A stretch of 64,000 nt of DNA from Antedon mediterranea (lineage: Eukaryota; Animalia; Echinodermata), in the NCBI RefSeq assembly GCF_964355755.1, contig NC_092672.1:12276001-12340000 (forward strand), given 5' to 3'. Below, one piece after another: positions 16,854-64,000 of the stretch. A program made the position numbers and the translations under genes. How positions within the stretch are numbered: the stretch's first letter is position 1; every line of letters starts with the position of its first letter. The notes under the pieces were generated by a model, which saw nothing but the letters and a program-made list of their open reading frames with translations, had not been told where the DNA came from and ran no database searches.

Positions 16854-16958
16854 ATTTTTTGTTGCTGTAACTGATGCTCCGTTGGCTATAAGACTGTTCA
16901 CTATCTCTACATTACCCCTGCCAAACCTAACGTGTTCATGTAGCGGTGTGTTTCCATC
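16854..16958 (-). CDS. Gene A ANK exon 4: DGNTPLHEHVRFGRGNVEIVNSLIANGASVTATKN
   Basis: 105 bp, AG/GT bounded, phase 0-0. Confidence 0.9.
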
Positions 16959-17322: not shown

Positions 17323-17427
17323 ATTGTTTGTTGCTGTGATTAGTGCTCCGTGAGCTATAAAACTGTTCACTATCTCTAAATTACCACGGCCAAACTCAAC
17401 GTGTCTATGTAGCGGTGTGTTTCCATC
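17323..17427 (-). CDS. Gene A ANK exon 3: DGNTPLHRHVEFGRGNLEIVNSFIAHGALITATNN
   Basis: 105 bp, AG/GT bounded, phase 0-0. Confidence 0.9.
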
Positions 17428-20400: not shown

Positions 20401-20559
20401 CAATTTTTAATATATTTTAAATTGTATTTTTCCTTTGATAATAACTATAGACTTTCCAAAAGAAAAACACATTAAACAAATCTAGGATTTGCTTATAACG
20501 GGAGATAATTCAAATAATTACGCTATGGATTTTTAAATCATTGTGTAAGAGTAAATTAC

Positions 20560-20664
20560 ATTGTTTGTTGCTGTGACTGAGGCTCCGTTGGCTATGAGAC
20601 TGTTGACTATCTTTACATTACCCCTGCCAGACCTAACGTGTTCATGTAGCGGTGTGTTTCCATC
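20560..20664 (-). CDS. Gene A ANK exon 2: DGNTPLHEHVRSGRGNVKIVNSLIANGASVTATNN
   Basis: 105 bp, AG/GT bounded, phase 0-0. Confidence 0.9.
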
Positions 20665-22579: not shown

Positions 22580-23110
22580 GGAGTTTGGATAGGGAATCCT
22601 CAACATTCTCCTTTCATTACATCACTTGGAGCAGAATTTTCTATTCCTAAAAGATATTTTTATTCTAAAATCAAAATATAATCCAAATGGTATGAAGACA
22701 TTGTTCATCTGCTGGAAAACTACAAGTCAGTCGATGCTACAAACCACAAGGGTTTGGAGAAGTCAAGCAGGCAGAAATTCATTATATCTCAGATGCTAGT
22801 AAAGTAGTATGTGGTCAATGCACGTATTTAAGATTGATGCCTCATGATAATATTTCTTCTATTTCTCTATTATTAGCTGACGCCAGCTAAAAAAACAAGA
22901 TATCAAGTGTATGTAGCTAACCGGGTATACAACAAATCAACGATGCAACTTCCATAGAAAACATCTTCTAATCCGAGTGATATAGTCAGTAGAGCCATGC
23001 GTGCTAACAGTAAGCAATTGATTTCAGATACCAGATGGGGTGAGTAGTTCTACACTTCTTCACCAGGTAGTTCTTAACAAACAAAGGCGGTTGGCCGAAA
23101 TCGATGACGA
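22580..23110 (+). mobile_element. Degenerate BEL/Pao LTR-retrotransposon pol (RNase H region) fossil inside the 3.3-kb unit; copies at about 15600-16120, 19310-19830 and 25840-26370
   Basis: Reads LQVSRCYKPQGFGEVKQAEIHYISDASKVVCGQCTYLRLM, then YQVYVANRV, SNPSDIVSRA and WVSS across frameshifts. Matches the BEL/Pao pattern PRCY...ELHxFSDAS..YG...YLR / FVANRV / NPADxxSRG. Confidence 0.8.
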
Positions 23111-23849
23111 ATCGCGTATAAGGTTGTTGCTTCAGAACTAAAATATTTTCGCTCATTCCACATTAATGTTGACAAAGTTGTTTCAGAATGGTTTTATAAC
23201 AGACAGATAAAATGAACTATAAATCACATTAAATGTATTGAATGTTCATTCCCCTTAAAGGAGCCAACACGTAGTAAGGCATATTTTTTATTAGATATGC
23301 CTATCAATGTTAAACTTAACAGTGATATAAGACAACAAAACACATGCAATAATTTAATATGAAAAGATTGGTGTAAATATTGCAAGGAGCCATGTAACGG
23401 CAGTATGTGTAACTGAGTTAATGATTATGTAATTGTTGTTGAAGATATGCTCATCGGAAATAATTTGCATAAAATACCATGTTAGCCTACGTATATTAGA
23501 AATCTCACTAGCTAGTGTAGTTAGTTGAGACGATGCTATAGTCAGCTGCACGATTTTTAATATATTTTAAATTGTAGTTTTGCTTTGATAATAAATGATT
23601 TTAATTATTATAATACAGAAGGGTTAACAATGAACACATTTTTAAAATAATAATTTAGGCTCTTGTTCAATCTAAAACGCTACAGCTACACGATTTTTAA
23701 TATATTTTAAATTGTATTTTTCCTTTGATAATAACTATACACTTTTCCAAAGAAAAACACATTAAACAAATCTAGGACTTGCTTATAACGGGATATAATA
23801 TAAATCATTACGCTATGGATTTTTAAATCATTGTATAAGAGTAATTTAC

Positions 23850-23954
23850 ATTGTTTGTTGCTGTAACTGATGCTCCGTTGGCTATGAGACTGTTCACTAT
23901 CTCTACATAACTCCTGTCAGACCCAACGTGTTCATGTAGCGGTGTGTTTCCATC
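23850..23954 (-). CDS. Gene A ANK exon 1: DGNTPLHEHVGSDRSYVEIVNSLIANGASVTATNN
   Basis: 105 bp, AG/GT bounded, phase 0-0, TPLH motif. Confidence 0.88.
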
Positions 23955-26840
23955 CTGAAAAGAAGAAAGTTAGTATTATTATATTTCATATTTTTCTTTT
24001 CTACATTCATTTTCTAATTCATTAAGAAGGAATGTAAATTATATAGAAATACCTGGTATTAAGAAAATAATGACTAACTGATTTAAATTAAGACATGCAG
24101 ATTATTTAGCAATGATCATTTTAAAAGTATTGATTTTAGCATCTTGTTTAATCTAAAATTCGACAGCTGTACATGATGTTTAAATATCGTAAATTATATG
24201 GTGATGGTTAGTAACTTTAAATAATATAATTTATTAAATTAATAAACATATTCCTACGCCTAGACATTTCGTTTAGATTCAAGTAAACTTTAATGAATAC
24301 TGAATTTGTAGATCTGTATGTATTTACCAAACCACCTTCAAAACACAATTGCAAATTCCAACAATACACTCTACGGTGAATTAAATAAATATTTTGTTAT
24401 GTTATTAATCTATTATCCATCCCACCTTCCTCCTACAATGAAAATATTACGTAATTCGTTTCTCCCATTTGCTATGAGGCTTTTGAATGCAAGCTATGTG
24501 TATGTATCGAGTTATGACATTTGCCTTTTTGTTATATTTGTTGCATTTGTATTTTATCCTATAGGTGTCGTACTGTCATGTATTTTACCATTTTTTTTTC
24601 TACTACGAATAATAAGGTTAATGATTTTAAATAATAGTAAATCTCTGTCAACGCTACCAAACTGTATCAATAAAGTGTCGTACTGTCTGTATTTTACCAA
24701 TTTTATCATATCTTTACTATATTTATTTAATATGTGACAAGCAGGACAATTTGTTTTACATTTCTCAGAGCTTGTTGGTATTTCATCATAATTACATTTT
24801 TCACAAATTAAAATATTGTGGTTTAGGGCCTACATAGTTATTATCAAACATTCTCATATACAGTACTTCATTGCCTCTTTGTACTGTATTTCACCTTTCT
24901 TAGCTGTGGATGCTTGCCAACGTCGCATAACATACTCTTTTAACTATCAAATAACAAATAAACAAGTAGCAAAATCTGTCTCACCACATTTGGCCAGTGT
25001 CATAAAAAAAAAAAAATTGGAAGACAGTTGAGGATCTGAAAATCACAATAAATGCGTTAAAATTGAATCAAACAACAATAATAACAACCTACTATTTATC
25101 AACTGTGAGATTTAAATGCATGCTTGAGTTGAGAGCAAGTAAAACCGTTAACAACAACAATGTATCTCGTTTATAGAGGGGGTAGTTTCAATAAACATTG
25201 GCAGACGGCAAACATACAATGTATAGAGTGCGTTTAAATATTTTCTGAGCTTACTAATGAGATCAGTATTTGTAGTTGACATAAGGACAATATATTTTGA
25301 TTTAGATGGATTATTTGTGTAAGAGGAAAACATATACTTAGTTCTACTATCTGAATAAACTAAAAGGAATTCATCTTCAATTGATTGTAGAGAGCATAAT
25401 TTGCATAGTCTATCATTTCTATTAGGCCTAATACGATTCCATCTTCCTTTTTCTAGTTATAATATTCCTAGTCTTTGTTTAGTCACAGTGTGTCTATGTT
25501 TTTAATTTTAATTAAGTATTCTTCCATAATTCCAACATAATTTACATTGAATGCGTGTGAAATATTGGAGCTTATAAAGAGTGCAAACTATTATCTCATA
25601 GAATTGTGTCGTTCAATAAGCCTCGCCATTGTTTAAATTTTGAAATAAAAATATATTGTTGACCTGTTGAGCATGCCATGTTGTCAAATCCATTTATACA
25701 TATAAAGTTTTACATCATTGACCCAAATCGCTCATTTTGTTGCGTTTTTCTATGTTGAAATCATAACATTGTTTAATGAATTTTTAATAATCTATTTGGC
25801 TTACTCTCAGCCACTAACGAATTAAATTAATGATACTTGGAGTTTGGATAGGGAATCCTCGACATTCTCCTTTCATTACATCACTTGGAGCAGAATTTTC
25901 TATTCCTAAAAGATATTTTTATTCTAAAATCAAAATATAATCCAAATGGTATTAAGACATTGTTCATTTGCTGGAAAACTACAAGTCAGTCGATGCTACA
26001 AACCACAAGGGTTTGGAGTAGTCAAGCAGGCAGAAATTCATTATCTCAGATGCTAGTGAAGTAGTATGTGGTCAATGCACGTATTTAAGATTGATGCCTC
26101 ATGATAATATTTATTCTATTTCTCTATTATTAGCTGACGCCAGCTAAAAAAACAAGATATCAAGTGTATGTAGCTAACCGGGTATACAACAAATCAACGA
26201 TGCAACTTCCATAGAAAACATCTTCTAATCCGAGTGATTTAGTCAGTAGAGCCATGCGTGCTAACAGTAAGCAATTGATTTCACATACCGGATGGGTGAG
26301 TAGTTCTACACTTCTTCACCAGGTAGTTCTTAACAAACAAAGGCGGTTGGCCGAAATCGATGACGAATCGCGTATAGTTGTTGCTTCAGAACTAAAATAT
26401 ATTCGCTCATTCCACACTAATTGTTTCAGAATGGTTTTATAACAGACAGATAAAATGTATTGAATGTTCATTCCCCTTAAAGTAGCCAACAAGTAGTAAG
26501 GCATAATTTTTCACGCTGCTGCTTTAGCCCGCTACATCCCAGGAGGATGACACATTAAGAAACCGAAAGTAAAGCAGCAGTTATATATCCAAGGTTGACA
26601 GTTTTGCTAAAATGCATACTCGACTGTAATTTATAGGTACCACCAAAAAATGTCTGGGAAAAAGTCTAACGGTTGAATGACAAATCCTAAAGCATTTGTG
26701 GTATTTATGAGTCCCATGATATTATATAGTTCGTTGTCATACATTATTCAAAGGTTTTCTTGTTTTTCATCCTTGAGTTTACCGTAAACATGGTGATGAT
26801 TTATATCATATTCAAATTCAAATAAATATAGTTTCTATAC

Positions 26841-26934
26841 CTTATCTATGGAGTTCACAAGATGTGGTTATGTTTTACATATTTCTTCAATTTTTTCCAA
26901 ATTTCTATATCTTACAGCTCTTAGCAATACGTTT
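26841..26934 (-). CDS. Gene A ankyrin N-cap exon with in-frame TAA
   Basis: Strong acceptor (pyrimidine run + cag) and AAG|gtatag donor. Reads (E)NVLLRAVRYRNLEKIEEICKT*PHLVNSIDK and ends in phase 0, joining DGNTPLH of the first ANK cassette. Confidence 0.75.
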
Positions 26935-29900
26935 CTGAAAAAAAAGAAAGATAAAAATGAATCATGGCTAGAATACTCGGTCGATGATGTTAATATGTTT
27001 ATTTGTCATGTTTCTAAACAATAATAAATACAATTTTCTTTGAACTCTTTATAATATTAAAAGTTTGTTGGATATAAAATGTAAAGCTTACTTCTCCATT
27101 TAAAAAATGCAGTCAGTTTGAAGAAATAACTTACTCATCCATTGAAAGAGTGGTTGCTGAAAAATGAAACGTAAACTTAATTTATTAGGTGATCATTTAG
27201 AATAAAATGATCACATATTGTTATTGTATGAAATCTTTAATATTATTGTTTCTGTACTCTTTTTGTGTAACAATTATCTCAAAAAGTTTAATGTCAATGA
27301 TCACAAAAATTTCACCATGTCAAATACTTTAACTTAGTCCAAATAAGCTTTTCAGCGTGATCACTCACCCGTGACGTCATTTATACGCCATTTTGTGAAA
27401 TCACATTATCAATCATATCTCCATAAATTCATTATCACAAATTAATGAAATTCACTACACGTAAACTTCAGGTCAATGTAAAGATATTAGCAAATCGTGA
27501 AATCGCGCGTTAAAAATTGAAAAAGCTCAAAGTTAAGTTTTGATCAATGATTTGAGCATGAATTAGGATGTACGTGTTTCAAAATTTACTGCGCTTTTTG
27601 CGCACGCGATTCTTAGAAAGCGTAAAAAATTAAATTTGATGTATACATCACATTCTACTCACAATCCTTAGTACATTCACTTATTTTGAGTCCATTCCGA
27701 CTTAAAATTACGCTCTACGAGCACGTTAAAGATAACAAAATGCGCACATTAATTTCACAAAAATTCCGAAAATGGTGAAAAATAGGTCTTTTTTAAAATG
27801 GAAGAAACTCTTCAGAATGCAAGATGACCCCACTTATACGGGAAGCCATTGAGTTGTAGATATGAATTCATGTACACATTTGACGTACAAAATGTTGTTA
27901 CGTCACCAAATGGCCACTTGAATTTAAAAATTGGGATTTTTTGCTAAATTAATTATCTTTATCATGACTTGCCACTATTTTTGTTTGATGACGTCATCAC
28001 GCGTAAAAACTTGAGTAACATTGGTCGAGTAATTTCACCTTCAGCGTATATTTGAATATCTCACAGCTCTTCAGAATTAAAGGTGACCTTGATTAATTTA
28101 ATTTATTGTGAACAGCTGATGAAATTTAGATTAAACAATTAAGCCGATCGAATGTTGTGACGTTATGATATGGCCAGTTGAATTTAAAAAGTAGTTTTTC
28201 ATCTCTTTCGTCACATTTATAACAATTTTAAATAGCGCGCACTGCGAAATTTTCTTCCAAACCTTATATTTTTTTGCTCAATTCATTATCTTTCGAAATT
28301 GTCATCTTCAAGTTTATTTTATGTGGGTCCCGTAAGTGCATCTATGCTACACTGTATATGGATATACAGTATACTGTACATATTATATATGACACATAAT
28401 ACTGTAGGTACAACTCAGCACTAAAAGTGTATAATGCATCATGTCATAGGATGGCGTACATCAACTTTTTACGATCGTATGTTAACGTACATGCATGTTT
28501 AAAAAAATTTAATTTCATTAAAATTATAAAAATGATCCCGTATAATTCGTCAAAGTGACGAATTAAGAGCCATTGTCTGTAAGAATCAAAGAAATATAAA
28601 AAAGAGTGGCAGACTAAAAAAAAATGGATTTCTTTCAAATTTTGCACATGGCTATATATGTGTTGAGAGAAATCAAATATGAAGTATTTTTTATTTCACA
28701 CGTATATTTCCATGGCAACGGCCAAATTTGTGTTTTTGACAAATTTTTTCCTTTTTTAAGGTTTTTAAAAATGGATATTGGTACTATTTTGATGAACGAT
28801 ATTTTTGTTTTGTTCATTTAATTATAAAAAATAATTAGTGAATGCATAATAACAATGCATTGTGTACCTGTTTCAAATTTTTTTATTTTTTTTTATTTCA
28901 TACTTTGGGAGATAGCATTTATTTAAAAATGGGTGTTTTTCACTTTTTTTAAATTGTTCAATGCAACTAAACTTTACTTCACCATAACGCCCAAAGTGGT
29001 GTATTTTTTTAGCTGATTTATTACAAATAGGTAGTTCTAATGTTTAATAATTGATTTCTAAAATAAAATACTGGGTTAAATTTAAAATCTACAAGCAGTT
29101 TTACGAGAAACATAGGCATTTTTATTTTTAAAAAAAACATGGTATGTTAGTAAAAACATTTTATTTTCTTTGATTATTTGATTTGAAACGCATTGGTCAG
29201 AAAAATTCTTAATGTTTTATATAGTTCTAGTTGTGTTGCGAGAAAAAAAACCCAATATTTTTAATTATAGATTCTGTAATTCCCAGTTTTAATGTCATTT
29301 TATAGGTTATATCCTCTGGAAATTTGAATAAATTATCAGATCAATTTTAATCCTTGCAACATTACTCCTCACTTATTTTGAAGCTCCTCTTTCATTTGTT
29401 TACTTCTTTTATTTGCTAACATAAGCAGATCCCACGTGCCCATCCACCACCACTTTTGACTACCCCCCCCCCCCCACCCCGACAATAACCACAAACAGAT
29501 AAACTGCAACACTGGTCGATCATCCACTATAGAGTGTCAAATGCATGCACTCAAGCACCACCCACACTGCCGCTACCATCGCCCCTATGAATAGACGGAT
29601 TCAAACTCCTCCAACCCACCCCCTTCCCCTTTCTCCAAGCCCCCATCCACCCAAAGTTCAAAATTGCAATGCAAAAGATAGGACATAAAGTTAAGTTTTT
29701 AGACCCTCGCCTTCAACCCCCTAACTATTTAAAAGTCCTGAATCCACCACTTTCCCCTCCCCAAAATAGAACCAATCAAAAGTCAATGATATAGGCCTAC
29801 TCAGGTATGTTAATGCTACATAACAAATATTGAAGCCCTGATTTGAAATTTCATTTCATTTAAGGTCAGCATGTAAAATATCACACTTTATTATTAAATA

Positions 29901-46685: not shown

Positions 46686-47215
46686 CTAAGGATGATATTC
46701 AAACTTTTCAGCAGGAACAGTCATGTTATTCTCCTTTAAAAATGCAATAAATGAGTGCAAGTTATCCTCCCTTAGAATCCCCCTTTGTTCAAGATCTAAT
46801 ATCACTGTCCATTGGTTGTCACTTCGTTTTTTTAGAACACTTTTCAAACGGATGAGATCTCTTGTATTTTCTTCCGAAAGTGCGTCACCGAACTGAATTA
46901 ATTGTTGTCGATATGTCGAGAAGGATGTGACATGCTGGTTGGTTTTGTCACTTGTCTCTTTTAACAGTGTGTTGACCTCAAGAACACCATTGGTACCAGT
47001 GACATTAATTACATCGATAAGAACTTTAACGTTGGTAGTGGAAAGATGGCCAGAGCGTTTCAATAAATTGAAGAACTCCATATAGTCTGCATTCTGTAGA
47101 TCACTGTAGGGTGTTATTATACCTTTGCATAACACCTTCAGTTTATCAAGGGAGCCATGTTCATCATACCAGGTCGATACGTTTACAACCATTTGTTCAA
47201 ACTCCTCGGACGATC
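46686..47215 (-). CDS. Gene B terminal exon encoding two tandem death-effector-like domains
   Basis: FEQMVVNVSTWYDEHGSLDKLKVLCKG...EFFNLLKRSGHLSTTNVKVLIDVI, then FSTYRQQLIQFGDALSEENTRDLIRL...WTVILDLEQRGILREDNLHSF. This resembles caspase-8/cFLIP tandem DEDs (SxYRxxL...LExxGxLxxxNL). Recognised by eye, not by HMM. Confidence 0.75.
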
Positions 47216-50200
47216 CTGTAGAAAGAAACCAATAACAAGAATATTAAGATCAATATTGCAAATGGTTACACTTATCCTTTTGTTTACAGTAAATAACTGT
47301 TGAATACCATAGACAAAACACATTCAATTCACTTTCCTATCGTGCATGGTTGGTGTAAAATTTACCTGTGTGAATTGGTGCTGGCTTTACATTACTTCTG
47401 CCTGGAAATGAAATGATAATTGCAACAATAATGTTTTATTTAATATCTTCAAACGTTTTGCAAACATTATCATTATAAGATACTCTATGTATACAATTTA
47501 TATATTTATTTTTAATAATTTATATGATTATTTTATTTTTATTATTTATTATATTTAATACGAAATACATACATGAGTGTGTAAACTAACCTTCCAAAAA
47601 AAAGCACTTCAAGTAATCTGTTTTCATGGACCTCTTGCCACATGGAACAATTTTGTTACCTTCTTTCAAACACTCTTCCAGATCGTGTAAATGAATGTGC
47701 TCTGGAAAACAGGCGATACACAGCACACGTAGGTTATAACCAATTCCTTCATTAGTTTTCAGCACAGTCTTTAGTTGAAGCTTCAAATACTTTAATATCT
47801 ACAACAAATAATAATAAATTTGAATTAAAGGTTTCACATAATTGCATTCAGGTAAGCTATTAAATTAAAATCTTAGAATCTTTACCTCAATGCACAAGCT
47901 CGGGTTTGGTTCATATATTACTTCTATGTCATTTTCGTCAACTTCAATTCGATGGGATATTTCAAGCTGTTAAAAAAGATGTATTTATTTATTACAATAC
48001 TTACATTCTACATCTCACTCAGACTGCTTACGTCTACTGTTGCATTTCATTTCTCGGGTGAATATCATTTGACTTTTAGAATCATTCAGCAAATTACCAC
48101 AAGCTCGACACAAAAATATTAAGGCTTTTAAAAAAATCGCCTCTATATAATAATTTAAACTCTATTTTTCTAAGATTACTCATTATCTCTTTATTTTGTC
48201 TTATTTCTAGGATAATATTTCTAAGAATCTCAAACGAATACATATTATTGGAAAAAAAACATGTTCTAATTTTTGTAATCCCAGCTCTTAAATCTCATTC
48301 TCTGTAGTCACCAACAGATGTATTTGGTTCTTATTGCTTCTATAACTGGATGAACGTTCCTAAAAGAGACTAAACTGCATAACATAATCCGAAATAAATG
48401 ATAATTTTACATTTGTTTAATAAATTACTAATGCTATGCTAGCTAACTTAACAGACATATTACATATTCAAACTGATGGTAAATTATGAGTTAAATGAAT
48501 ATTCATACCTTCAACGCATGCCTGTTTTCATTTTGATGCTCGATTTTCACGGCACCTAAACGAACCTCATGATCTCCAAAGTCAAAATCACTACGATTTT
48601 GAAATACAACTGGATCGCGTAGTCTACCGTTGAGCTCCACCAGGTTCAGAAATGCAACAACTAATGTATTGTAGACAGCATTAGGCAGAAAGTCAGTAGG
48701 TGTAAGATACATCGACACCGTATGTTTCTCGTCTTTTTCAACTTTCAGGCTCTCTTGCGTGTTTTTCATTCGAGATGGAACAAGGAACAACCGGTTGTCT
48801 TCGCTTCGGTGCTGATGCAAACAACAGTTGAATTATATAGTGTTATAAAAAAGTAACATCGATTTGGAATAGGCCTACTATAATAATCTCTGATTTAATT
48901 AAAAGCCAAGATGCTTAACCTACTTGTAATTTCTCATAGAGCAAACCAAATGTTTTCATCACTTCAGTAAAGATTTCAAAACGCTTTGAATCTTCCTGTA
49001 ATTCATGTTTCCATAAATGACGTAGCAGTTTTTCCTCAAGTATTCCTTCCTTGTTAAGCTTATTCCATAGCATTCTTAGTTCTTTCTGTTACCAAATAAT
49101 AGAGAAAATAATAAAAACTTATACATACAGTACACTATAAAAGTGCAATACATTTTCATCAAAACAAGTAATTCGTTTTATATCAACATTGTTTTGTGAC
49201 AATTATTTTGCTAACCTTATCTACTTACCACTTCAATAGTTGGTTTAACTACTGTGATCACTTTTGTCACCATTTCAATCATCATGTAAAGATTTGTTAT
49301 CACTGTGTTTCTTAATTTCTTGTTAGTACTTGAATACATGATAACTCCAATGTCATTCAGGTACCCTATGGCAGTGAATAGCCCATCTTTTGAAATTCCA
49401 CATTCAGTGCCGATTTTAGATGTCTAATGCAAATTAATAACAAAATAGACTGTACTGAATTTGATGATTAAATATTGTTATTTTCCTTTAAAATAATTGT
49501 AAACAGCTTATTGTTGAATAAAACATATTTTTATCTAACATTCTTCCTTTTGACTTGACATTTTAGAAATCGCATTGTCGAGAAGGCCTATTTCTAGTTA
49601 AATGTAACTGTTTGCTTGCATTTTTCATATTTAATTTACATTATCTTTGTTCAGTTTTTTTAAGATGATAACTAGCTTTTTATTAACATTACGAAATAAA
49701 CAATTCAATGTTTGATTTCATTAATAATTTTAGTTGCTCATCTTTTGCAGGAACAACTAAAATAAGAAAAATAGTACAATAATGATGAAGACTTCCAAAT
49801 ACTAAAAAATGACAAGAAATCTATATTTACTATTGTAATATTAATTCACATCGCTGGCTGAACAAAGAACTTGTCAACATTACATTGTAGACAGAAATGT
49901 GTCCTTCAAATTATTACGTTATACATTATAATTGTTACCGTATAGTACACTATTTTTAATAAGATAATAAATTATTTTAGTACCAGCGTTCATACTCTAT
50001 ATGTGTTTTATAAATCTGTGTTTACAGTTGTGACAACATAAAATAAACGGTTATACATTAAAAACCAAAATCTTACCTCAGTAAAAGTAATACACAGTGT
50101 TGTTTTTCCAATTTCTTGCAACTGTTCTTGCAAATCCACCCATTTTAATGGAACACTTCTCACCATGGCCTTCATGTAACGACCAACGTTTCTCCTTAGT

Positions 50201-53200
50201 TGTTTTATACCTTCATGCGATTTTACAGTGTTATCAACAATGTACATTTCACGATCTACATGATCGGCATATGGCATTCCTTCCATTTTTTCAAACATTT
50301 TACGAAACTTATCCTCCACTTCCTTTAATAACAAGTGTTTTCATAATTACATGCTATAACAACAACAAGAATGTAATTATTCTTACTAACTGTTATTTCA
50401 TATTCTGATTTGAATAAGTCTAACCGATAATTAAACTTAATACTCGATTTAATTTGAGGATCGTAGGCTACGCTATTTATATTTCATCACTGTATCGGTT
50501 TTAACTAATTCAGCCTTAATCCCGTCCGTGTATACCACATACCGTTGCAAAATTGTAAGCTTATTTAATGTTAATGTACGTCTGTTACCTTGATCCAATT
50601 TTTTGTTTTTGACTTTTTACGAAATGTGTCCATATGTGTAGCAACCAAACAGATAGGAGGTGACTCGATGATCTTGCCATCAATATTAATGGGACTTCCT
50701 GGACCATGTTGTGCCACAGTATGTTCATAAATGGACCTTATCCAGAACATATTCATTTCCGAATTGGTCATTCCTAGTGTACTCTAAAATCACAAATAAA
50801 ATTCAATCTTACAAAGTAAGCTAACATATTTTCAATAACAAAGATATGCATATTTAATAAAGTGTATTCGAGCAAATAAGTCGGTACTGTAGGCACTTAC
50901 TGTAATTGAATCTCGCGGATTAGCTGGTTCATCCAAGTTATCACACGCATTAAACGCTACACAGTAGGATACTCTATTTGTGAGGAAAAACTAAACAAAA
51001 TACAATTGATAATAATAACTTTTTTTATACTCCAAGTCATTTATTAGGGATGTGTTAATTGATACATGCAATAATACTTTAGAGAAAATGTTATACCCCA
51101 ACACAATGTCGTACTGTCACTATGAGCAAATCTCTTTATTTTTTAATAATCATTTAACATATAAAACAAAAACTATGAACAAAAGAAAAAATACAAAAAT
51201 CAAATAAAATTGTAAAATATAATTTAAAGGTCTGTATAATAGAATAGATACGTAAACAAGCAAATCAATGCCCTTTTTTTAAACATGCACCAATAAATTT
51301 ACTTTTTAATTTTTAAGACATTTTTAAGTAATAGCAAATAACAAAATAGGAACATACCCTATGCGTTATGTAGTAGTCCAGTTGACCTGCGTAGTCCCAT
51401 ATAGTAGTTACGTCACTTGGAATACTTTCTGAATCATCACTTCTTCTTTTTACAAATTTCCTAATCATTTTTATGGCCCAACTATCTTTCTGTCTTCGCT
51501 TTTTTATTTTAGCAACAACTTTTCTTTGAATGGAGTCGGGAATTGTCAGATTTTCTTTTAGTTGACTCTCTAAATTCAAATAATGACTACAAATCAATGG
51601 GGTGTGTGTACATTAGATATGGATATGGATAGATGGACTGGTCTGATATGTTGTGAGTAGACATAATGAATGTTAATTTGGATAAAAAAGTGTATACAAT
51701 AAATAAATACATCAGTCAGGATGATTAAAGAATTGAACGAGCAGTGAATAAACACATTTATTTGTTTGCAACAAGAAAAGAAATCTCACTCTTCCCTGGT
51801 TGGACTAACTTTTTGAGAACAAAATTTTCCAGAATGTTTCATACTAATGGTACAATGCCATACATATTATTTTATCAAATATAAAGAAAACCAAATAATG
51901 AGTCCAACCCTTTCTTGCCGATTCCACTGCCAATGACGTGTAATCAGACTCTCTGGAATCAGATGTAGAAGCCTCGCCTAAAGAAAGTTCGTTGAAAGAT
52001 GTTCTTTCTTTCATCTTTGATGTAATTTCTTCCACTACAGCCTCTTCAAATATTCTCTGGGTTTGCTTGAATCTGGAGTTTTCTGTCGGCGAAAATGTAT
52101 AACTAAAAATGATTATTTGTGTCGTGTTGCACTCATAACGAATAAAATGGTTATATTATTATATACTAGAGCAGTGAAATATCACTTATATGCCTGTATA
52201 AACTCCACAGTTTAACAAGTACTACTTTATATTAATAATAATAAAACAATAATATAAACAACACTCCTATGAAGTTATAGTGTGATAATTTTGTGTTTCT
52301 TTCAGTATCAGCATGTATAATACACTACATTAATTTATTATTTACATTAAGTTGGTTTATTTACTTTTTTTAAGAAAAGAAATTACTATTTTAGATCTTG
52401 TCATGCAATTAATTTGTTGTTTATTAATTCGTGCGAGGACTTGTTAGGCCTATTAGTAAAGTGATTGTATGCGAAACGACCACACTTTATTTATACAAAA
52501 TGATCGTCAAAAATATTTTTAAAAATAATCAAACCTTCCACTGAAGACACAGAGTCAGAAGATATAGAACATTCCAAATCAGATATGGAAGGTGCTGCAC
52601 CTTGTAAATTGAATTTGGTTTCAGTTGACGTTTGTTTTTCCATATTTGCTGTGATGTGTTCAGGCGTTTTCGGGGATGATCCTGCAATTCATTATAATAT
52701 ATTTTTGATACAATATAATAGACTGTATAACATTTCACTTTTATGTATGTTTCAATACTGTATGAGTGCATCTTAACTTGATTATGATCACCAATACAGT
52801 TTGTTTAGAATAATAAAAATACCCTTGTAATAGATATTATAGTAGATATTCATCATACCTGTTTTTACTGGATCCAAAGAAGAGATTGCTGATGATTCCA
52901 GTTGGGAATCAGATTTAGATGTTGACATATCTGAACTTCCTTCACCATCATCCATTTCTTCCTTTATTAACTGTGTTGCAAGTTTTTCTGCAAGTGCATC
53001 TTCCCGTATTTTCTTGTGGAGCTCCATAACTGTAAAAAAAAAAGGTGAAATAAGATTGTACGATAAACATAATAGAGATAAATTAAAATACTAAAATTAG
53101 AGAAATGAGATACATCATCATATCATCATCATCACCTGTAAAATACAATAAATATGTAGGTAATTTATGTAATTATAGACCAAAATGCATTTTTAAGTAT

Positions 53201-56200
53201 TTGATAAAAATATTATTTCCAGTGTACCTTACCGGTACGTTTTTACCTTTATTATGATACAAATTAATCTCTATACACAAATTGGCCAAAGCAGGCAATT
53301 ATGCGTTTGTTGAAGGAAGAAGAAAGAGAGAGTTTCTCTCTTTTGTGGGGACAGCTCACTTTGAACGAACAGTTAATGTGTTATTTGGTATGGTTGAATT
53401 CTTTTTTTCAAACTTACCGTCGATATCTTCCTTCTTCCACTTGTCACACTCTTTTCCAATTGCTTGAAACAATGTCGTTGTGATAGCAATACCATCAGTA
53501 GATGGTTCGTTGGATTTAAATCTATAATAATGAATAATGAACTCTAAAAGGTCGGATTTAATGAAAGGAGAATGTATCCAATAGTTCATCTTAAAATATT
53601 AATATATTTAAAATAAAAACGAAGTGAAGATCACAAGTAAATAAGCATATGCTTCACACCTCTTGGGGATATTTAAAACAAACTGAAACTTTCAGCAGCA
53701 GAATTTGCATAAACATCGTCGTCACCATCACCGTCAATGTCACCATCATCGTCATTATCATCATAATTGCCATTATAATCATCATCATTATTATTATTCG
53801 AAAAGGAATGAAAACCCGTTACTCAAAGACGAAACTTCAGGTATCAACTATTTAAAATAAGAACCTCACTAATACCAATTTTTGTATTTTATTGAATAAT
53901 TACATATCAAAATACTCAGCACCAAACTTATTATAAACAAGAAATCCAAACAACTCGTTAAATGTTGTCAATTGCATTAGAGATACTTATGAAAAAAGAT
54001 AAAGTTTTTTAAATGGTTCAAAAAACAAAAGATTGATTTTAATATATTTTTTGATAAGGAATGTTATGCCATGACTATTATAGAGAACATGAATACAGGA
54101 TTAAAAATAAATGAGCACTTAATCTACTGTAATGGTAAAAACACCATTCAAATTGTATTATAAATACTTTATATTGATGAAGATCATGTATTTTTTTATT
54201 GGTGCATCTTATAAAATAACTTTGTTTTTGTGTTACCTTTGTCCAAGCATGGCCTTTACACAGCTAGTTTTTCCAGCACCTTCTTTCCCGAGAAACATAC
54301 ATCTTGAATTTACAACTGCAATCTCACCATTTTCAAGTTCATTTTGAAATGATCTAATTGCGCTCTTACCTCTAGCTAATATTTCAACTGGAACTAAATT
54401 GCGATTAAAATAAATGTAAAATATACAAAAACAAATGTACAAATACAAATATTTTACATTTAAGAATCATTTCAAAGCCAGAGTTTTAAAACTGTCATTA
54501 TGAGAGCTCATCTTCTTCACATTCATACAGTTCAAAGGTTCAGTACAATGTTCATTGTGTGTCATTAGTAATACACTGCACTTTAATATTCATGATGCAA
54601 AACTCAATCAAAGTGTATTAATTAATACAAACTTACTGTCAAGTAACTTCAATATCGTATTTTTCTGTTCTTTGGAGATATCACTATTATCCTTCAAAGC
54701 AGATGCTGGTGTTTGTCCTTGCTATACAAAAAATGTATTAAAGTATTATCCACTGTTGCTTTACTAATCTATATATAAATTTACGTAAGGAAAAAAATCG
54801 GTAAATCGCCCCTTACTTCTAGAATTTTTATTTGATGGTATATATAGTTGGTTCGTACTTTCGGTACTGATTTTAACCACCTTATGTAACTCTGTTTACT
54901 AATTAAATTGAGTTAGATAATTATTTATTGACGATTAAAGCGAATTTACGATTTGCCCCGAATAGAGATGTTTTTCACAAATTGTTTTACACTAGATGTT
55001 TTACGCTAGATGGTATCATCTAGGTCGTGCCCACAGATTGTTCTCGAATACACAGTAATTTCAGCGTAACAAAACTGGCGATTTCAAATGTACGTACCGC
55101 GGGACTATAATACATTGTCGTTTACAGAAACGAATAAATAGACACGATGATCTAAAACATTTTAATGAAGTATTGGAATAAATCAACACAAAAAGTAGTC
55201 CAATTTGGCGATGCGCTCGGACACAAACTATTACTTTTTGGGTGTATGTTTTCTTTAGACATCAAATTACTGCCATTGTTTGCCTTTTTTGTGTTTATCC
55301 TTAAAAAAAATCAGGAAAGTGAAATAGCCTATCGTGTGCGGCCCATCAATAAACATCAGTGTGCCAAATGTAAGCACGTACCGTTCAGTGGTTTTGGAAG
55401 ATATACATAAAAAAAAATATAGTAGCATTAATATTTAGATGCTAACATAATGTCTTTAAACAATTGGCGCCCTTTCTGATATTCTTTTGCTCCATCAAGA
55501 TGATGATTACTGTGTATTAGTTAACAAAAGATTTGTAATATTTTAAGTTACTAACATACTCCTAATCAAAATAAGAGTATACCATGGATATAGGCGTAAT
55601 GGTTTGCTTAATAAGCACAATTTAAAACTGAAAATGCAATGTTGCTGAATTAATTGACGGTACCTTATTTCTTGCTTTAAGTGATGCTCCGTGGGCTATT
55701 AGACTGTTCACTATCTCTACATTACCATAGCCAACCATAACGTGTTGATGTAGCGGTGTGTATCCATACTGGAAAGAAGAAAGTTAGAATAAACTTGAGC
55801 CATTTTTTTCAAGAATACAGGTAGTATTATATTACTTTTTTTTTCTATATTTCATTTTGTAATTCATTGAGAGTGACTGTAAATTATATAGAAAGACCTG
55901 GTATTAAGAAAATAATACAACTTGCTGATTTAAATTATTATAATACAGAAGGGTTAGCAATGAACACATTTTAAAAGTATTAATTTAGCGTCTTGTTCGA
56001 TCTAAAACGCTACAGCTACATGATTTTAATATATTTTAAATTGTATTTTTGCTTTGATAATAACTATACATTGATTCGAATGAAAAACACAATAAACGAA
56101 TCTAGGGTTTGCTTATAACAGGAGATAATTTAAATTCACTTGTAATGTTAACTAATACGAATAATTACATTAATGATTTTTAAATCATTTTAAAAGACTA

Positions 56201-58620
56201 ACTTACATTGTCTGTTGCTTTGATGGATGCTCCGTGAGCTATGAGACTGTTCACTATCTCTACATTACCATAGCCACCCTTAACGTGTTCATGTAGCGGT
56301 GTGTTTCCATCCTGGAAAGAAGAAAGTTAGAATAAACTTGAGCCATTTTTTTCAAGAATACAGGTAGTATTATAGGGTGTGTAAAAAGCGACGACCTCGA
56401 ATTGGACGACCCCAACGACCCAGGCGACCTCGAATTGGACGACCTAGAATTGGACGACCCATAACACGAAACCGACGACCCCTATAATAGCCTAGCCTAG
56501 CCTAGGCCTAAGTATGGTATAACATCCCGAAGCCGAACATAACCAAAGATCTTTAAACCATACCTTATATAATACTCGCAAGCAAGCAATTGATTGAAAA
56601 AATACAGAAATATCGCCATTTGATACTGAATGTGTCGACACGAACAAACGAACAGATATGGAACGCCAAGAGTGCATCATTAAAACTGCATTCGACTCGA
56701 TTAGCACACGAAATATCATAAACATGGCAAACCAGGCCCCTTTTTCAGCGGCAGGTAAGGTTTGACCATGGAGGTATATTTTACCTCCATGGTTTGACCA
56801 GCTCCATGGTTTGGTAAAAATATTTTTATACCTCCATGGTTTGACCGTATACAATGCATGTGTGAAATGTAAAGCTTTCTTATGGCCCTCCCCCATGCAG
56901 GATTAGGCCAAGTTGAGCCGCCGACAAGTTGAGGCGCCGCCAGAAAAACGTTATTTTCTATGAAACGCCAAATTCTTACTTTCGCCGGTGCTCGTTTCTA
57001 TTTAATAGAAGTTCTATTTATATTAATTATTAGATATAACGATGTATATTCCAAAGTTTATATATCACGGTTTTTAGTATAATTATTATTAAATATTATA
57101 ATTAAAGAGAAATAATTATGAATATCTGACTTGTAGATTCCAAAATATAAGGCCTAAAACATGACCGAAAATGATCGTTTTTAGCCAAAAATGACGTAAA
57201 CATGTTGCCCCCTCAGGCGGCAGTTGAAGTAAAATAATTGCATAAAATCACCGTTTTTTTGGAAAATATTTTGTGTATTAACATTGTAAAATTCAATAAA
57301 ATATGATATTAAAAGATAGTAAATAAAAAATAATAATTATTTAACCTCATTCGAAGAATATCAATACTCTATTAGTCCTGAGAGACAACGTGATTTTACG
57401 TGGTAAGCATACACGCGAGAAAAATATTATGGAGTGCACTGCATTTTTACCTTGAAAGATTAAAAACAATTAAATTATTAAATATGACTACTTTCCTTAG
57501 CTGTTTCAAACCAACAAAATTGTAGTATGTAATTATTATTTATTTTCATGACACAACAAACCTAAAGACCATGAACTTATGTAGGGCCTACTAGGACACC
57601 ACTCTATCACTAGGCGAAATGTCGTAAAAGACGCACTGGCCGTTTCATAGAAATTACCGGCGGATCAACTTGTCGGCGGCCCAACCGGTCATATCCCCCC
57701 ATGCACATGTTACGCTGCTTGGTAGGCCTATAGTGTTCGTTATAAGAAGACGAGATGTAATTATACGTCCATGGTTTAACCATGTATTGTATAATATTTA
57801 TTTCTTTTTAATTTATTTTTAATATGTCGAATGCAGTTTTAATGATGCACTCTTGGCGTTCCATATCTTTTCGTTTGTTCGTGTCGACAGAATCAGTATC
57901 AAATGGCAATATTTCTGTATTTTTTCAATCAATTGCGTGCTTGCGAGTTTTATATAATAAGGTATAGTTTTGATCTTTGGCTATGTTCGGCTTCGGGATG
58001 TTATACCACACTTAGGCCTAGGCTATAGGGGTCGTCGGCTATATGGGTCGTTCAATTCGAGGTCGTTCAATTCGAGGTCGCCCGGGTCGTTGGGGTCGTC
58101 CAATTCGAGGTCGTCGCTTTCTACACACCCTAGTATGATATTACTTTTTTTTCTATATTTCATTTTGTAATTCATTGAGAGTGACTGTAAATTATATAGA
58201 AAGACCTGGTATTAAGAAAATAATACAACTTGCTGATTAGAATTATTATAATACAGAGAGGTTAGCAATGAACACATTTTAAAAGTATTAATTTAGCGTC
58301 TTGTTCAATCTAAAATGCTACAGCTATACTATTTTTAATATATTTTAAATTTTATTTTTGGTTTGATAATAACTATACATTTTTTCCAATGAAAAACACA
58401 TTAAACGAATCTAGGGTTTGTTTATAACGGTAGATAAATGTAAATTAACTTGTAGTGTTAACTAATGCGAATAGTTACGTTAATGATTTTTAAATCATTT
58501 TAAAAGAGTAATTACATTGTCTGTTGCTGTGATTGATGCTCCGTGAGCTATGAGACTGTTCACTATCTCTACAATACCATCGCCAAGCGTAACGTGTTTA
58601 TGTAGCGGTGTGTTTCCATC
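46686..58620 (-). CDS. Gene B: ankyrin-repeat / Roc-COR (ROCO) / tandem-DED protein, 5'-incomplete (N-terminal exons not found, presumably beyond the retrotransposon and window edge)
   Basis: Twenty GT-AG exons splice in frame to TAG at 46686 (about 1136 aa in window): 58620-58516, 56311-56207, 55768-55664 (ANK), 54721-54637 (ANK C-cap), 54393-54237, 53521-53418, 53029-52859, 52681-52535, 52082-51909, 51569-51358, 50990-50901, 50783-50589, 50322-50077, 49423-49229, 49085-48924, 48811-48509, 47966-47886, 47798-47591, 47401-47366, 47215-46686. Roc motifs: PVEILARG, G1 GKEGAGKTS, G2 STDGI, G3 IWDYAGQLDYYITH, G4 LVATHMD. COR-like YLNDIGVIMY...VITNLYMMIEMV and FLVPSR. Confidence 0.9.
54768..55437 (+). 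mobile_element. 3'-truncated Helitron in a gene B intron
   Basis: Begins a|TCTATATATAAATT, the same 5' end as 11324, and is absent from gene A. Homology to gene A resumes near 55438 with ~260 bp of host intron missing; no CTAG/hairpin end found. Confidence 0.6.
55664..55768 (-). CDS. Gene B last internal ANK exon: YGYTPLHQHVMVGYGNVEIVNSLIAHGASLKARNK
   Basis: 105 bp, AG/GT bounded, phase 0-0. Confidence 0.9.
56207..56311 (-). CDS. Gene B ANK exon: DGNTPLHEHVKGGYGNVEIVNSLIAHGASIKATDN
   Basis: 105 bp, AG/GT bounded, phase 0-0. Confidence 0.9.
56375..58130. mobile_element. Mutator-like long-TIR (foldback) non-autonomous element in an ANK cassette intron
   Basis: About 350-bp TIRs (gggtgtgtaaaaagcgacgacctcgaattggacg... 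/ ...cgtccaattcgaggtcgtcgctttctacacaccc). Flanks tagtattata / tagtatgata (TSD 6-10 bp depending on boundary). Empty site at about 55822. Confidence 0.8.
56900..57696. mobile_element. Second Mutator-like MITE nested in the previous element
   Basis: Perfect 9-bp TSD ccccatgca (56891-56899 and 57697-57705); TIRs ggat...gccgccgacaagttga and its inverse. Confidence 0.8.
58516..58620 (-). CDS. Gene B ANK exon: DGNTPLHKHVTLGDGIVEIVNSLIAHGASITATDN
   Basis: 105 bp, AG/GT bounded, phase 0-0. Confidence 0.9.
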
Positions 58621-59530: not shown

Positions 59531-60824
59531 TGTCACACAGCCGCAATTACGGCTCTTTCGGACATGTAATATCTGGTAACCACCGGTAAACAACGGTAAA
59601 TAGCCACAACTGTACACATATAAATGTAAAAAGTAAATTTAATAATAATCTTTGACAAACAATTCTTCCTTCTATAATCCAAACCCCACCTAAAAAAAAA
59701 CCAACAAAAAAACCCAAGCAATTCTCAACCAATGATACAGTATCCCTATTCCCACACAATTTATACACTTTCCCAAATTCCCAATCCTTCCAGACAAAAT
59801 ATCGACAATCTTCTTATTGTCAGATATAAATCCCAGAAACCCCCCTTCCAAATACAATAATATCACAAGATGAATAATACAATAATAAATGTCCACAATA
59901 TCGTTCCTTCTTGCCTTTTCTCCTACGCTGACACAAAACAAATTCGAAAGATAAAAGTTAAAACGATTCCGCAACTAAACAACTCCTCTGCTCCCGTTCT
60001 GCTTGTATTCCCAATTATACTTCTTCTCAACCTGCAACTATCTTCTGACATATAAATAAATGAAATATAAAGTTAAAAATGTTTCTTGAGGTCCTTCTGC
60101 ACTGCAATCCGCTCCCCGATCAATTATTTCTTTCTCCTTTTCCACGTAACATAATATCAGTATCAATAAAGTCAGTCTTCGATACTTTCAACAAAAGCTT
60201 TCTTTAAAAGCAATTAATTCTGCTATTTCCAACAGTTATTATTCGATTTATTAACTTCATGTATCTCACTTTATTTCATTTCTGCTCCAGCTCTAGATCA
60301 CCATAATTATTTCCAACTCACAATTTATTAACTTCATGTATATCACCTTATTTCGTTTCTGCTTCAGCTCTATATCACCATAATTATTTCCAACTCACAA
60401 TTTACTAACTTCATGTAGATCACCTTATTTCCTTTCCGCTTCAGCTCTATATCACCATACTTCTTTCCAACCCACAATTTATTAACTTCATATATACCAC
60501 TTTACTTCCTTTCTGCTTCAACATAACATAACCCTCCTTCTCTGTCTCCTCTCAACTTTCATCTCCTTCTCAAACTTCCCTCAATTGCACACATACCACC
60601 ACCTTATCCTTCTCAACCAATCAGCAACTCACACACCAACTCAACTCTTACACCTCTCCTCCAATCAGCAACCTCCACACACTCCTTCTCTGCACACTAA
60701 CACTCTGCTCCACTGGCTTCAAACAATAGTTTCCTAAAACAAAAGAAAGGTTCAAATAATGAAAACAAAAGGAAAAGTAAGAATAACTTGCACAATAAAT
60801 ACAAAACTTATGTCACTTGTGACA
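59531..60824 (-). repeat. 3' LTR (1294 bp) of the retrotransposon
   Basis: Perfect 7-bp inverted termini TGTCACA...TGTGACA. Preceded on the minus strand by the polypurine tract AGAGGGGAGTAAA (60837-60825). Contains ~3.5 copies of a 77-bp tandem repeat (about 60246-60520). Confidence 0.85.
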
Positions 60825-60873
60825 TTTACTCCCCTCTAAAAGAAATATGTACCAACATTTTCTCTAAATATAT

Positions 60874-63800
60874 TTACACTCGACTTAGATAATCAGCTCC
60901 TACATTTTCACTGCCTTTAATCGCCTCTATTCGGAACTTGTACGGTTGTAGAGCCAGGGCCCATCTCATAATTCGCCCATTGGACAATTTCGCTCGCTGC
61001 ATAAACACAAGCGGCTGGTGATCAGTCTCCAACGTGAAGTTTCGTCCATATAAATAAGATTCAAACTTTCGTACACTCCAGACAATGGCTAAACATTCTT
61101 TTTCCATCACTGAATATGCTTTTTCTCGAGGAAGCAGTTTCTTGCTAGCGTACGCCACGGGAAACTTCACGTCACCATACTGCTGCATTAGAACCGCTCC
61201 CACTCCACATTCGGACGCATCTGTTCTCAAAATAAAATCTTTGTTTAAATTGGGAAGGCATAAAACTGGAGTACTATTTAATTTTCCCTTAAGTTTAACA
61301 AACGCACTTTCCTGGGCCTTCTCCCAACATATTCGGTTAGGTTCCCGATTCTTCGTTTTGTCGGTTAATGGACAAGCAATTACAGAGTAATTAGGAATGA
61401 ACTTCCTATAGTAGTTGGTCATCCCAAGGAATGACCGGAGTTGTTTCTTCGTTTCTGGCTGTTTGGCTGACAGGATGCTTTGCACCTTCTCCACCCTAGG
61501 TTGAACCTGTCCTTTCCCTACCACATGGCCAAGAAACTCGATTGTTTCATAACCAATGAAACATTTGCTCGGTCGAGCAGTTAGGTTGGCCCTGCGGAGA
61601 TGTCCAAACAATTCAGACAAACATTTCATATGTTGATCCCAAGAAGCTGTGTGAATTAGAATGTCATCAATATAATTAAGTGTATTATCCATTCCTTTGA
61701 GTAATTTTCTCATGATACGACTGAAAGTAGCTGGTGCATTGACTAAGCCGAACGGCATGACATTAAATTGAAACAAACCATCTGGTGTTAGAAAGGATGT
61801 TAAAGGTTTTGACGCTTCATCCATGGGAACTTGCCAATACCCTTTACTTAAATCTATCTTAGTAAAATAATGATCGTGGGCCAACCTTGTGAACTGTTCC
61901 TCTTGGTCCGGGATCGGTTCGGCGTCAAAACTGTAACCTGATTAAGTTTCCGAAAGTCCACGCAGAATCGATTTGACCCATCCGGTTTCTTTACCAATAC
62001 TATTGGTGATGCAAACGGTGCCCCTGAAGGCTCCACTACACCCAGATTTAACATCATATTTACCTCATCCTTAATGGTACCTCGCAACGCATGTGGAAGT
62101 GGATAGGGCTTGGAACGGATTATATCCTCAGTTTCCAACTTGATTTCATGCTGCCCAAGTGTAGTCTTCCCCGGTAAATCCGTCAATACATCTTTGTAGT
62201 TTCCGATGAGTCGGTGCACCTCATGCTTTAGGGTATCATCCAGGCTTTCGTTGATGTGAATGTCGGCTGTTGTTTCTTTTGCTAGTAAAGGGTGGAGCTG
62301 CAAAAGATTCTCATTAGATAGATGATAATTTTGGTTACTTGTAAATGTTTCATTAGGTTCGCATTCAATAACAGTGGTGCTAGCTAATTCAAGGATATCT
62401 GAAGGCTCGGATACCTCCAGAGCAGCACTAATGTCTGCGGTTCGCTCATAATACCTTTTCAAGAGATTGGCGTGAAATATTTTGAATTTCCCATTAATGT
62501 CAATTTGGTAGTCTAGATACCCAAATTTCTTTACAACCTTAAAAGGACCTTTCCATTGAAGCAACAGTTTGTTTTTGTCTGTGGGTAGTAAAAGTAGTAC
62601 CTTATCCCCAACCTCAAATTCCCGGGACTTACTCTTTTTGTCATAATATTGTTTATACCTGACCTTTGATTTTTGTAGATTCTTCTGAGCCATCTGACAG
62701 GTTTCATGTAATCGTTCCCGTAAATCCATAACGTACTGGTAGGTGGTTTTTGTTTCTGGTGTTTCAATTTCTTCGGTCCACAATTCCCTTAGGATGGACA
62801 TGGGTCCTCGGACGGTACGGCCATATAAGAGTTCAAAAGGAGAAAAACCTAAACTTTCTTGTGAAGATTCCCTAACAGCAAACAGTAGTGGGTCAATGTA
62901 TCGATCCCAATCAGTAGGCCTTTCGGCACACATACGTTTCAGCATTTGTTTGAGTGTTCCATTGAACCGTTCGACCAAACCATTACAAGCTGGGTGATAT
63001 GGAGATGTCATTACCTGACGTATAGACAACAACTTACTAACTTGCTTCATGACTTCCGATGTAAATTGTGATCCCCTATCGGTAAGCATTTCTTTCGGGA
63101 TACCAAGTCTAGAGAAAACACCAACCAAGGCCTCAGCAACCCGTTCAGCTTCAATACTTGGTAGAGGCACTGCCTCGGGATAACGAGTAGCAAAATCTAT
63201 TATTGTGAGTATATAACGATTACGACCTTTAGACATGGGGAAAATGGGACCAACTATATCAACGGCAATCCGTTCAAACGGCACCTCGATCAAAGGCATG
63301 CTTCCTAGAGGCACTTTCGTAACTCTACCTTTTTGTACAGTTCTCTGACAAATGTCACAGGATCGACAATATCGAGTAATATCCGCAGTGACCCCAGGCC
63401 ACCAAAAAGTTGTCAACACTTTATCCGTCGTCTTTTTGACCCCTTGGTGTCCTCCTAATAAGGTTTCATGGGCTTGGCGCATTACCTGGCGTCGATAGTC
63501 AGCTGGCACTACCAGTTGGGTAAACTTATCCCCGTGTTCAATATTAGGAGAGGAAAATTGCCTATATAATAGGTCTTTATGATAAATAAACCTAGACGTG
63601 GCTTGTTGTAGTTTGCTTCTCTGCAAGATCCTTGAATTTTGCAAGGCTGACATCTTGTTGCTGAGCGGTCTTCATAGTTACCGCTGTGATTATTTGCTGG
63701 TGTATTTCTGTAGTTTTAAGTGTTCTGAATGGTTTATCCATATTGTTAGCTTGAGACCGGGTGACAACAGAACATCCTTGAAGATTCCGCTCTGTCCATG

Positions 63801-63963
63801 TGGGATCTGGATTTCCTGGTGCTCGTACTCCTGCAATATTACCTAATATCAAGTCATAAATAGGGTTATTCATACATAGTGCATACGTATTTCCTGAAAA
63901 AAATGGTGTATTAACCTGTATTAATGCAACCGGTAGGTTGCGGACCGTGCCGTCAATCAGCAC
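60874..63963 (-). pseudogene. pol: Retrotransposon pol split into three ORFs
   Basis: ORFs 63592-63963, 61854-63653 and 60874-61884. Adding one T to the T-run at 61927-61930 restores VTVFDAEPIPDQ; a second frameshift lies near 63605-63620. Confidence 0.85.
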
Positions 63964-64000
63964 ACAGGTTTTCTCCTTACCAGTAAGTTGTTCGGCTGAT

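Follow-up and report, generated by a model that had tools for sequence, protein, structure and literature searches.

Does a crinoid gene that joins ankyrin (ANK) repeats and a Roc-COR module to a C-terminal pair of death effector domains (tandem DED, tDED) encode a working counterpart of the NLR receptors, built around a different switch? The question is raised by a 64,000-nucleotide stretch of Antedon mediterranea DNA (contig NC_092672.1, positions 12,276,001 to 12,340,000; the window, within which all coordinates below are positions), where a first-pass annotation had read the order ANK-Roc-COR-tDED, with no kinase, between 46686 and 54721 and had proposed NLR-like logic. The architecture is confirmed here: this is a spliced gene of a crinoid, encoding a kinase-less ROCO protein with ANK, Roc-COR and tDED. 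Judging from the sequences of the gene and its relatives, we lean towards the view that this protein is an intracellular immune sensor working in an NLR-like way, in which ANK would be the sensor, Roc-COR the switch and tDED the effector.

The gene model runs on the minus strand from 58620 to 46686 (Table 1) and consists of 20 exons with GT-AG ends at all 19 introns, which when joined encode 1136 residues over 3411 nt in a frame that is open throughout, the sole stop lying at 46686-46688. The domain order is three ANK repeats, an ANK cap, Roc with motifs G1 to G4, COR, a 36-nt micro-exon, tDED and the stop; the order first proposed is thus upheld, whereas its interval is too short, as the ANK repeats lie at 55664-58620 and just the cap exon falls inside it. 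In addition to the splice signals, transcript-like contigs support the model. Run X1 was taken as RNA since GT-AG introns are missing from its contigs, whereas contigs of runs X2-X4 read through them. Of the 16 introns lying from 54760 down to 46400, at least 14 are spanned by X1 contigs. The joint agrees with the predicted exon ends in 11 cases and is approximate in 3, where a few letters stay unmatched; the joint of the G3 exon with the next exon is absent among the X1 contig joints listed, and ANK-ANK joints are absent among the contig rows listed. A single X1 contig spans the COR-tail exon, the micro-exon and the DED exon; it shows 11 differences from the gene over 371 nt (about 97% alike), and is an allele or close paralogue. 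Together with the introns and motifs, it bears out two earlier claims, namely that the Roc G1-G4 and COR exons are spliced in frame to a terminal exon holding two DEDs, and that this exon shares a transcript with COR. A chance mosaic of open reading frames is ruled out by the 19 in-frame GT-AG introns and the RNA joints.

The protein is assigned to the ROCO proteins by its Roc motifs (G1 GKEGAGKT at residue 169, G2-like STDG at 193, G3 WDYAGQ at 442 and G4 THMD at 534) and the adjoining COR domain, with GTP switching putative. Its relatives were compared as 188 collected proteins, labelled with P-numbers, among which P0001 is the RefSeq model of the gene itself (XP_071944624.1, Antedon mediterranea, ‘uncharacterized’; DED exon identical, 2 of 950 compared residues different). 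The Pfam Roc profile scores 41 bits in the paralogue P0002 and 21.9 bits in P0001, which lacks G1 (cut-off 27), and a profile matches both C. tepidum Roco (E 3e-14) and LRRK2. Directly after Roc, COR-A scores 60 bits in P0001 against a cut-off of 35.3; the match to COR-B is weak (E 0.21). Between G2 and G3 lies an acidic insert of 164 residues, rich in S, T, D and E and derived from three symmetric exons, so that the G1-G3 spacing is 272 residues in P0002 compared with 103-106 in several paralogues without the insert. No NACHT or NB-ARC match was found in the exons of the gene or in the scanned paralogues, and the gene is not an NLR by membership: what is NLR-like is the proposed way of working, without the NACHT/NB-ARC ATPase. 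The paralogues with complete N-termini (P0050, P0006, P0012 and a tandem copy in the window) start with an N-cap and ANK, and no kinase was found in them; for the window copy itself, the earlier statement that the N-terminus has no kinase rests on these paralogues, because its own 5' end lies outside the window.

The terminal exon matches the Pfam DED profile in two stretches (E 1.2e-7), yet at 32.3 bits stays below the cut-off of 35.9. Structure prediction from the single sequence was uninformative (AlphaFold2, AF2; predicted local distance difference test score, pLDDT, 41), as was a single-sequence search of the Protein Data Bank (PDB), with one unrelated match (E 0.35); the fold and homology signals improved only once alignments replaced single sequences. 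With a 15-sequence alignment, AF2 gave a tDED model of pLDDT 90.1 and predicted template-modelling (TM) score 0.85, for which all 24 rows listed by Foldseek are tDEDs of caspase-8, cFLIP or vFLIP (best TM 0.72, E 5.8e-4), and a family profile aligns with caspase-8 over both DEDs (E 6e-6). The exon is therefore predicted to form two packed DEDs of the caspase-8/cFLIP type, in line with the death fold expected of it. At about 18% overall identity, the K-x-L positions of DED1 and the Y-R positions between the DEDs align with caspase-8, and the RxDL motif of DED1 is absent (GTNGVL at the aligned site).

Support for a recognition role comes from the ANK exons, of which the window holds 11, three in the ROCO-tDED gene and eight in the tandem copy. 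Each ANK repeat corresponds to one symmetric phase-0 exon (all 11 are phase 0-0; ten of 105 nt, one of 108 nt), and the exons were duplicated together with their intron flanks. Selection was tested with our own codon-model code on the ten 105-nt exons (35 codons; the 108-nt exon excluded). Comparison of models M1a and M2a gave a likelihood ratio test statistic (LRT) of 27.2 on the exon-derived tree, with omega 6.6, 29.1 on the intron-derived tree and 63.5 on a star tree, omega being about 6-7 on the two inferred trees; the tandem copy's seven exons alone gave 16.4. In simulations under the null model with heavy recombination, the highest LRT was 10.5 in one set (48 runs) and 4.2 in another (59 runs), so that the observed value exceeds all 107. 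Five ANK codons (8, 11, 12, 13 and 14; posterior above 0.9) are under diversifying selection. At these codons the tree-free differences at first, second and third positions are 0.60, 0.62 and 0.15, against 0.149 in the flanking intron; the codons were chosen for this comparison after the data had been seen, a choice of which the LRT is independent. As third positions are at intron level, a mutation hotspot is ruled out as the source of this variability. Between the Roc and COR exons of the two tandem copies, the proportion of nonsynonymous differences (pN) is 0.01-0.10 in seven of the eight pairs compared, and lies below that of synonymous differences (pS) in six. Codons 11-12 correspond in alignment to the variable residues of designed ankyrin repeat protein (DARPin) repeats in the PDB, residues that we take to face the ligand. 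How such an array grows is seen at 14911-26511, where segmental duplications of about 3.3 kb, 89-95% alike, each carry ANK exons.

Diversifying selection leaves the ligand unnamed, and the variable ANK array might instead read polymorphic self, in allorecognition, tissue surveillance or regeneration control, rather than microbes; fungal NLRs, for example, are described as controlling allorecognition cell death (PMC13449251, available text). The parallels with the fullest documentation, however, have been put forward as receptors for pathogens, and we give a self-reading array little credence.

The second line of evidence comes from the wider family, surveyed as the best 150 of 7711 HMMER matches at E<=0.001, in automated gene models. 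Among the 188 proteins, 32 have COR followed by tDED, one has tDED solely before Roc-COR and 16 have tDED without COR; 41 of these 49 are named, all from Antedon or Anneissia, so that the tDED-ROCO combination provisionally appears to be restricted to crinoids. Within the family, the C-terminus has a history of its own: with P0001, P0010 shares 86% identity in COR and 29% in tDED, whereas P0002 shares 60% in COR and 85% in tDED; the COR and tDED trees disagree, with approximately unbiased (AU) tests rejecting congruence (p 6e-5, 0.01 and 3e-60); and among close COR relatives the C-terminal domain is Death, HEPN or a second Roc-COR. On these sequence comparisons, the C-terminal effector is shown to have been swapped among paralogues, between tDED subtypes, Death and HEPN. 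The same tDED also occurs at the N-terminus of two crinoid NACHT proteins, P0061 (Anneissia; five tDED-NACHT-LRR) and P0181 (Antedon; two tDED-NACHT), and the first tDED of P0181 and the C-terminal tDED of the Antedon ROCO protein P0067 have 67% identity. Several family proteins consist of little besides tDED repeats and are candidate adaptors, some of which may be fragments. An Antedon protein, P0008, has ANK, two tandem Roc-COR units and a hydrophobic C-terminus resembling membrane helices.

Beyond crinoids, other death-fold Roc-COR proteins occur, and the contrast first drawn with vertebrate ROCO proteins was overstated, since combinations of Roc-COR with Death, CARD, TIR or HEPN and without a kinase are widespread in invertebrates. 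The five non-crinoid relatives named are from Glandiceps (ANK-Roc-COR-Death), Branchiostoma (NHR-Roc-COR-Death-TIR), Amphiura (CARD-FN3-Roc-COR-TIR), Nematostella (HEPN-Roc-COR-Death) and Owenia fusiformis (P0184, CAH1786849.1; Bcl2-Roc-COR-caspase in one protein, which could be a fused gene model), and Atlas clusters include mollusc COR-CARD/Death/HEPN and ANK-Roc sets. A kinase was seen in two of 40 wider relatives scanned, neither of which carries tDED. The order Neuralized-Roc-COR-Death-TIR, with its MyD88-like end, recurs in P0084, P0098, P0101, P0103, P0104, P0116, P0125 and P0140, the one named being from Branchiostoma, and P0142 and P0164 each combine NACHT with Roc(-COR), a trypsin-like tail being present in one of them. 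Word-based searches returned crinoid proteins and, besides these, just four LRR-Roc-COR proteins, of which one is named as bacterial and three are unnamed; the 7711 HMMER matches show this narrowness to be a limit of sensitivity, and a bacterial origin is therefore not argued.

NLR-like logic is supported because the ANK repeats are under selection, the effector is swapped and tDED is common to crinoid NACHT proteins; the further proposal of a caspase-8-like filament nucleated by the receptor is unproven. In the working scheme, the variable ANK surface would bind a foreign or damage-linked ligand, binding would alter the nucleotide and oligomer state of Roc-COR, and this change would expose or cluster the tDED, which would then recruit other tDED proteins and thereby signal cell death or inflammation. 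The multi-tDED proteins of the same animals would be likelier partners than caspase-8 directly. Caspase-8 assemblies are built from trimers (available text of PMC11074299) and a bacterial ROCO protein is reported, in a source seen in part, to monomerise on GTP, so that a dimer nucleating a filament is one option among several. More tentatively, crinoids may run a second intracellular receptor system beside NLRs, in which Roc-COR stands in for NACHT, a natural, DARPin-like library of one-exon ANK repeats provides a shifting ligand specificity, and a mobile tDED exon common to ROCO proteins, NLRs and multi-tDED adaptors wires both into one pathway of DED assembly.

Several observations weigh against the sensor reading. 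Ligand binding, the direction of the switch and the partners are all inferred. The AU groups were named after inspection of the trees, and the swaps rest on automated models able to fuse neighbours. Seven of the ten ANK exons tested, in our own code over 35 codons, come from the tandem copy, which is damaged: its N-cap exon contains an in-frame stop, and one of its insert exons has a non-AG acceptor. At the effector end, DED2 carries R-L at the positions of caspase-8 F122/L123, with Arg in place of F122; the aligned position varies across the crinoid tDED family, and no tDED-caspase was found among the best 150 matches. The double mutation F122A/L123A stops caspase-8 self-filamentation, although FADD still recruits such mutants (Yang 2024, PMC11074299, available text). 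The FL motif is thus needed for self-extension and not for recruitment by FADD, which, with Arg at F122, makes self-filamentation of the crinoid tDED doubtful; it may join a mixed assembly.

The same residues bear on an alternative in which the tDED, under sensor control, would be a cFLIP-like brake or decoy, binding and capping the DED assemblies that NLRs or caspase-8 have formed rather than initiating them. The FL motif of DED2 is not kept, the top fold matches include cFLIP and vFLIP chains, and cFLIP caps DED assemblies (PMC11074299, same text), but the best sequence matches are to caspase-8, no cFLIP chain is among the 24 profile matches, and a hypervariable sensor with HEPN or Death in the same slot would better fit an activating effector. 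A brake is therefore unlikely in our judgement, and the activating sensor is preferred.

For the window copy in particular, no first coding exon or start codon was found in the window, the joint of the ANK cap with Roc is absent among the X1 contig joints listed, and P0001 begins after G1 and thus has neither ANK nor G1. These points also suggest a decaying copy of a real birth-and-death family, truncated by a long terminal repeat (LTR) element or expressed with no ANK head: no homologue of the N-cap exon was found near the gene, the LTR element begins about 0.9 kb upstream of the first ANK exon, a stop and a lost acceptor mark the tandem copy, and the RNA contigs, about 97% alike, may stem from a paralogue. 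All 20 exons, however, keep their frame and GT-AG ends over 3411 nt, an intronic element can be spliced out, and complete ANK-Roc-COR-tDED proteins are annotated for the paralogues P0002, P0006 and P0012. Decay is thus improbable; the public RefSeq model misses the ANK head of the gene, and we infer that the 5' end lies beyond the LTR element at 59531-64000.

The surroundings of the gene are rich in repeats. The last exon of the tandem paralogue would fall just outside the window. Between 1444-7675 and 47591-54393, the two copies are 93-98% identical in the Roc and early COR exons and 86-88% in the later COR exons; such a mosaic is suggestive of gene conversion. A 71-bp satellite (41 copies, 96% matches) occupies 41606-44520 between the two ROCO genes, and a 1.76-kb element with long terminal inverted repeats, of high copy judged by contig depth, lies at 56373-58132 in the intron that separates the first ANK exon from the second. 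In the LTR element, integrase stands upstream of reverse transcriptase (RT)-RNase H, split across two frames, and a putative 3' LTR at 60824-59531 is preceded by a purine tract; this integrase-before-RT order in a gypsy-type element we take to mark the Gmr1-like group.

Table 1. Exons of the ROCO-tDED gene, in order of transcription, and neighbouring features of the window.
Feature	Position	Strand	Remarks
ANK repeat exon	58516..58620	-	105 nt, phase 0-0
ANK repeat exon	56207..56311	-	105 nt, phase 0-0
Last ANK repeat exon	55664..55768	-	105 nt, phase 0-0
ANK C-cap exon	54637..54721	-	93% identity with P0050 cap
Roc exon, P-loop GKEGAGKT (G1)	54237..54393	-	3' joint present in RNA-like contig
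Roc exon, G2-like STDG	53418..53521	-	motif; spliced contigs
Insert, three phase 1-1 exons	53029-52859, 52681-52535, 52082-51909	-	between G2 and G3
Roc exon, G3 WDYAGQ	51358..51569	-	motif, profile
Two Roc exons	50990-50901, 50783-50589	-	G4 THMD in second; motif; spliced contigs
End of Roc and COR, exons 1-3 of six	50322-50077, 49423-49229, 49085-48924	-	profiles, spliced contigs
End of Roc and COR, exons 4-6 of six	48811-48509, 47966-47886, 47798-47591	-	profiles, spliced contigs
Linker micro-exon	47366..47401	-	36 nt, phase 1-1; spliced contig
Terminal exon, tandem DED and stop	46686..47215	-	530 nt; two AATAAA about 200 nt downstream
Tandem paralogue	84..26935	-	N-cap exon, 8 ANK exons, cap, Roc, COR, micro-exon
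LTR retroelement upstream of first visible ANK exon	59531..64000	-	runs past window end

To our knowledge, most ROCO proteins have no known function. Among animal proteins, DAPK1 has the same succession of ANK, Roc, COR and a death-fold domain, and differs in having a single death domain, where the crinoid family has tDED and is expanded and diversifying; the kinase/calmodulin region of DAPK1 was found in no tDED-bearing relative scanned. The gene is not DAPK1 by membership, tDED replacing the single death domain. It could nevertheless be a DAPK1 derivative, with the kinase lost and the death domain traded for tDED, serving as a housekeeping apoptosis or autophagy scaffold, as the shared order and the automatic naming of look-alike Atlas clusters as DAPK1-like would suggest; set against dozens of paralogues, repeats under selection, swapped effectors, and nearest named non-crinoid relatives that are other multi-domain ROCO proteins, such a descent is very improbable. 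Compared with caspase-8, cFLIP and vFLIP, the predicted fold and the spacing of the two DEDs are alike (TM 0.72), while those proteins carry tDED at the N-terminus and the crinoid tDED is C-terminal, without protease, with Arg at F122 and without RxDL. Invertebrate NLRs with death-fold N-termini share the sensor-switch-effector layout, with DED among the effectors, and differ in their STAND ATPase, the crinoid ROCO protein having a GTPase switch and the reverse domain order (Yuen 2014, PMC3879445, available text).

Kinase-less Roc-COR proteins with death folds are already known or public, the crinoid Roc-COR-tDED proteins themselves as ‘uncharacterized’, and for brown algae and bacteria a role of ROCO proteins as immune receptors has already been proposed in print. 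In the searchable literature (titles and abstract openings, figures and subscription papers being outside this scope), neither Roc-COR-tDED nor crinoid ROCO proteins were found described; about forty animal ROCO architectures are drawn in Fig. 2 of Teng 2024 (PMC11378527), whose content could include DED, and further prior art on ROCO proteins is found in PMC6337361, both sources being available in part. The Trichoplax ROCO expansion (Civiero 2014, PMC4104024) and the Aplysia ROCO-TIR/Death proteins (PMC9334734) likewise combine invertebrate Roc-COR with repeats and death-fold or TIR domains; in their accessible text, CARD, Death, TIR, TPR and LRR are named, with no selection analysis, and the terms DED and ankyrin are absent from the text of PMC4104024 (figure excluded). 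Prokaryotic LRR-AP-GTPase(Roc)-COR-effector proteins share variable repeats, a Roc-COR switch, an interchangeable C-terminal effector and many paralogues per genome, but are bacterial, predicted to act against invaders and built on LRR, with TIR, caspase, trypsin, GT4 and EADs and no caspase-8-type tDED among the effectors listed in the available text (Kaur 2021, PMC8195603). Also among the closest systems known are the brown-algal LRR-ROCO proteins, candidate immune receptors (Zambounis 2012, PMC3341825; Teng 2024, PMC11378527; available text), in which Roc-COR is kinase-less, each repeat is one phase-0 exon, exons duplicate, repeat residues are under positive selection, and the genes cluster and evolve by birth and death. 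Two marks of an exon-shuffling repeat receptor, one repeat per symmetric exon and positive selection, are found in the crinoid gene, which differs in being animal, in having ANK instead of LRR and in its swapped C-terminal tDED common to NLRs. The immune-receptor idea for kinase-less ROCO proteins rests on algae and bacteria, and a deuterostome family whose ANK surface is under selection and whose effector also occurs on NLRs makes it testable in animals, where tDED assembly would offer a simple read-out of kinase-free Roc-COR signalling that bears on LRRK2 and DAPK1.

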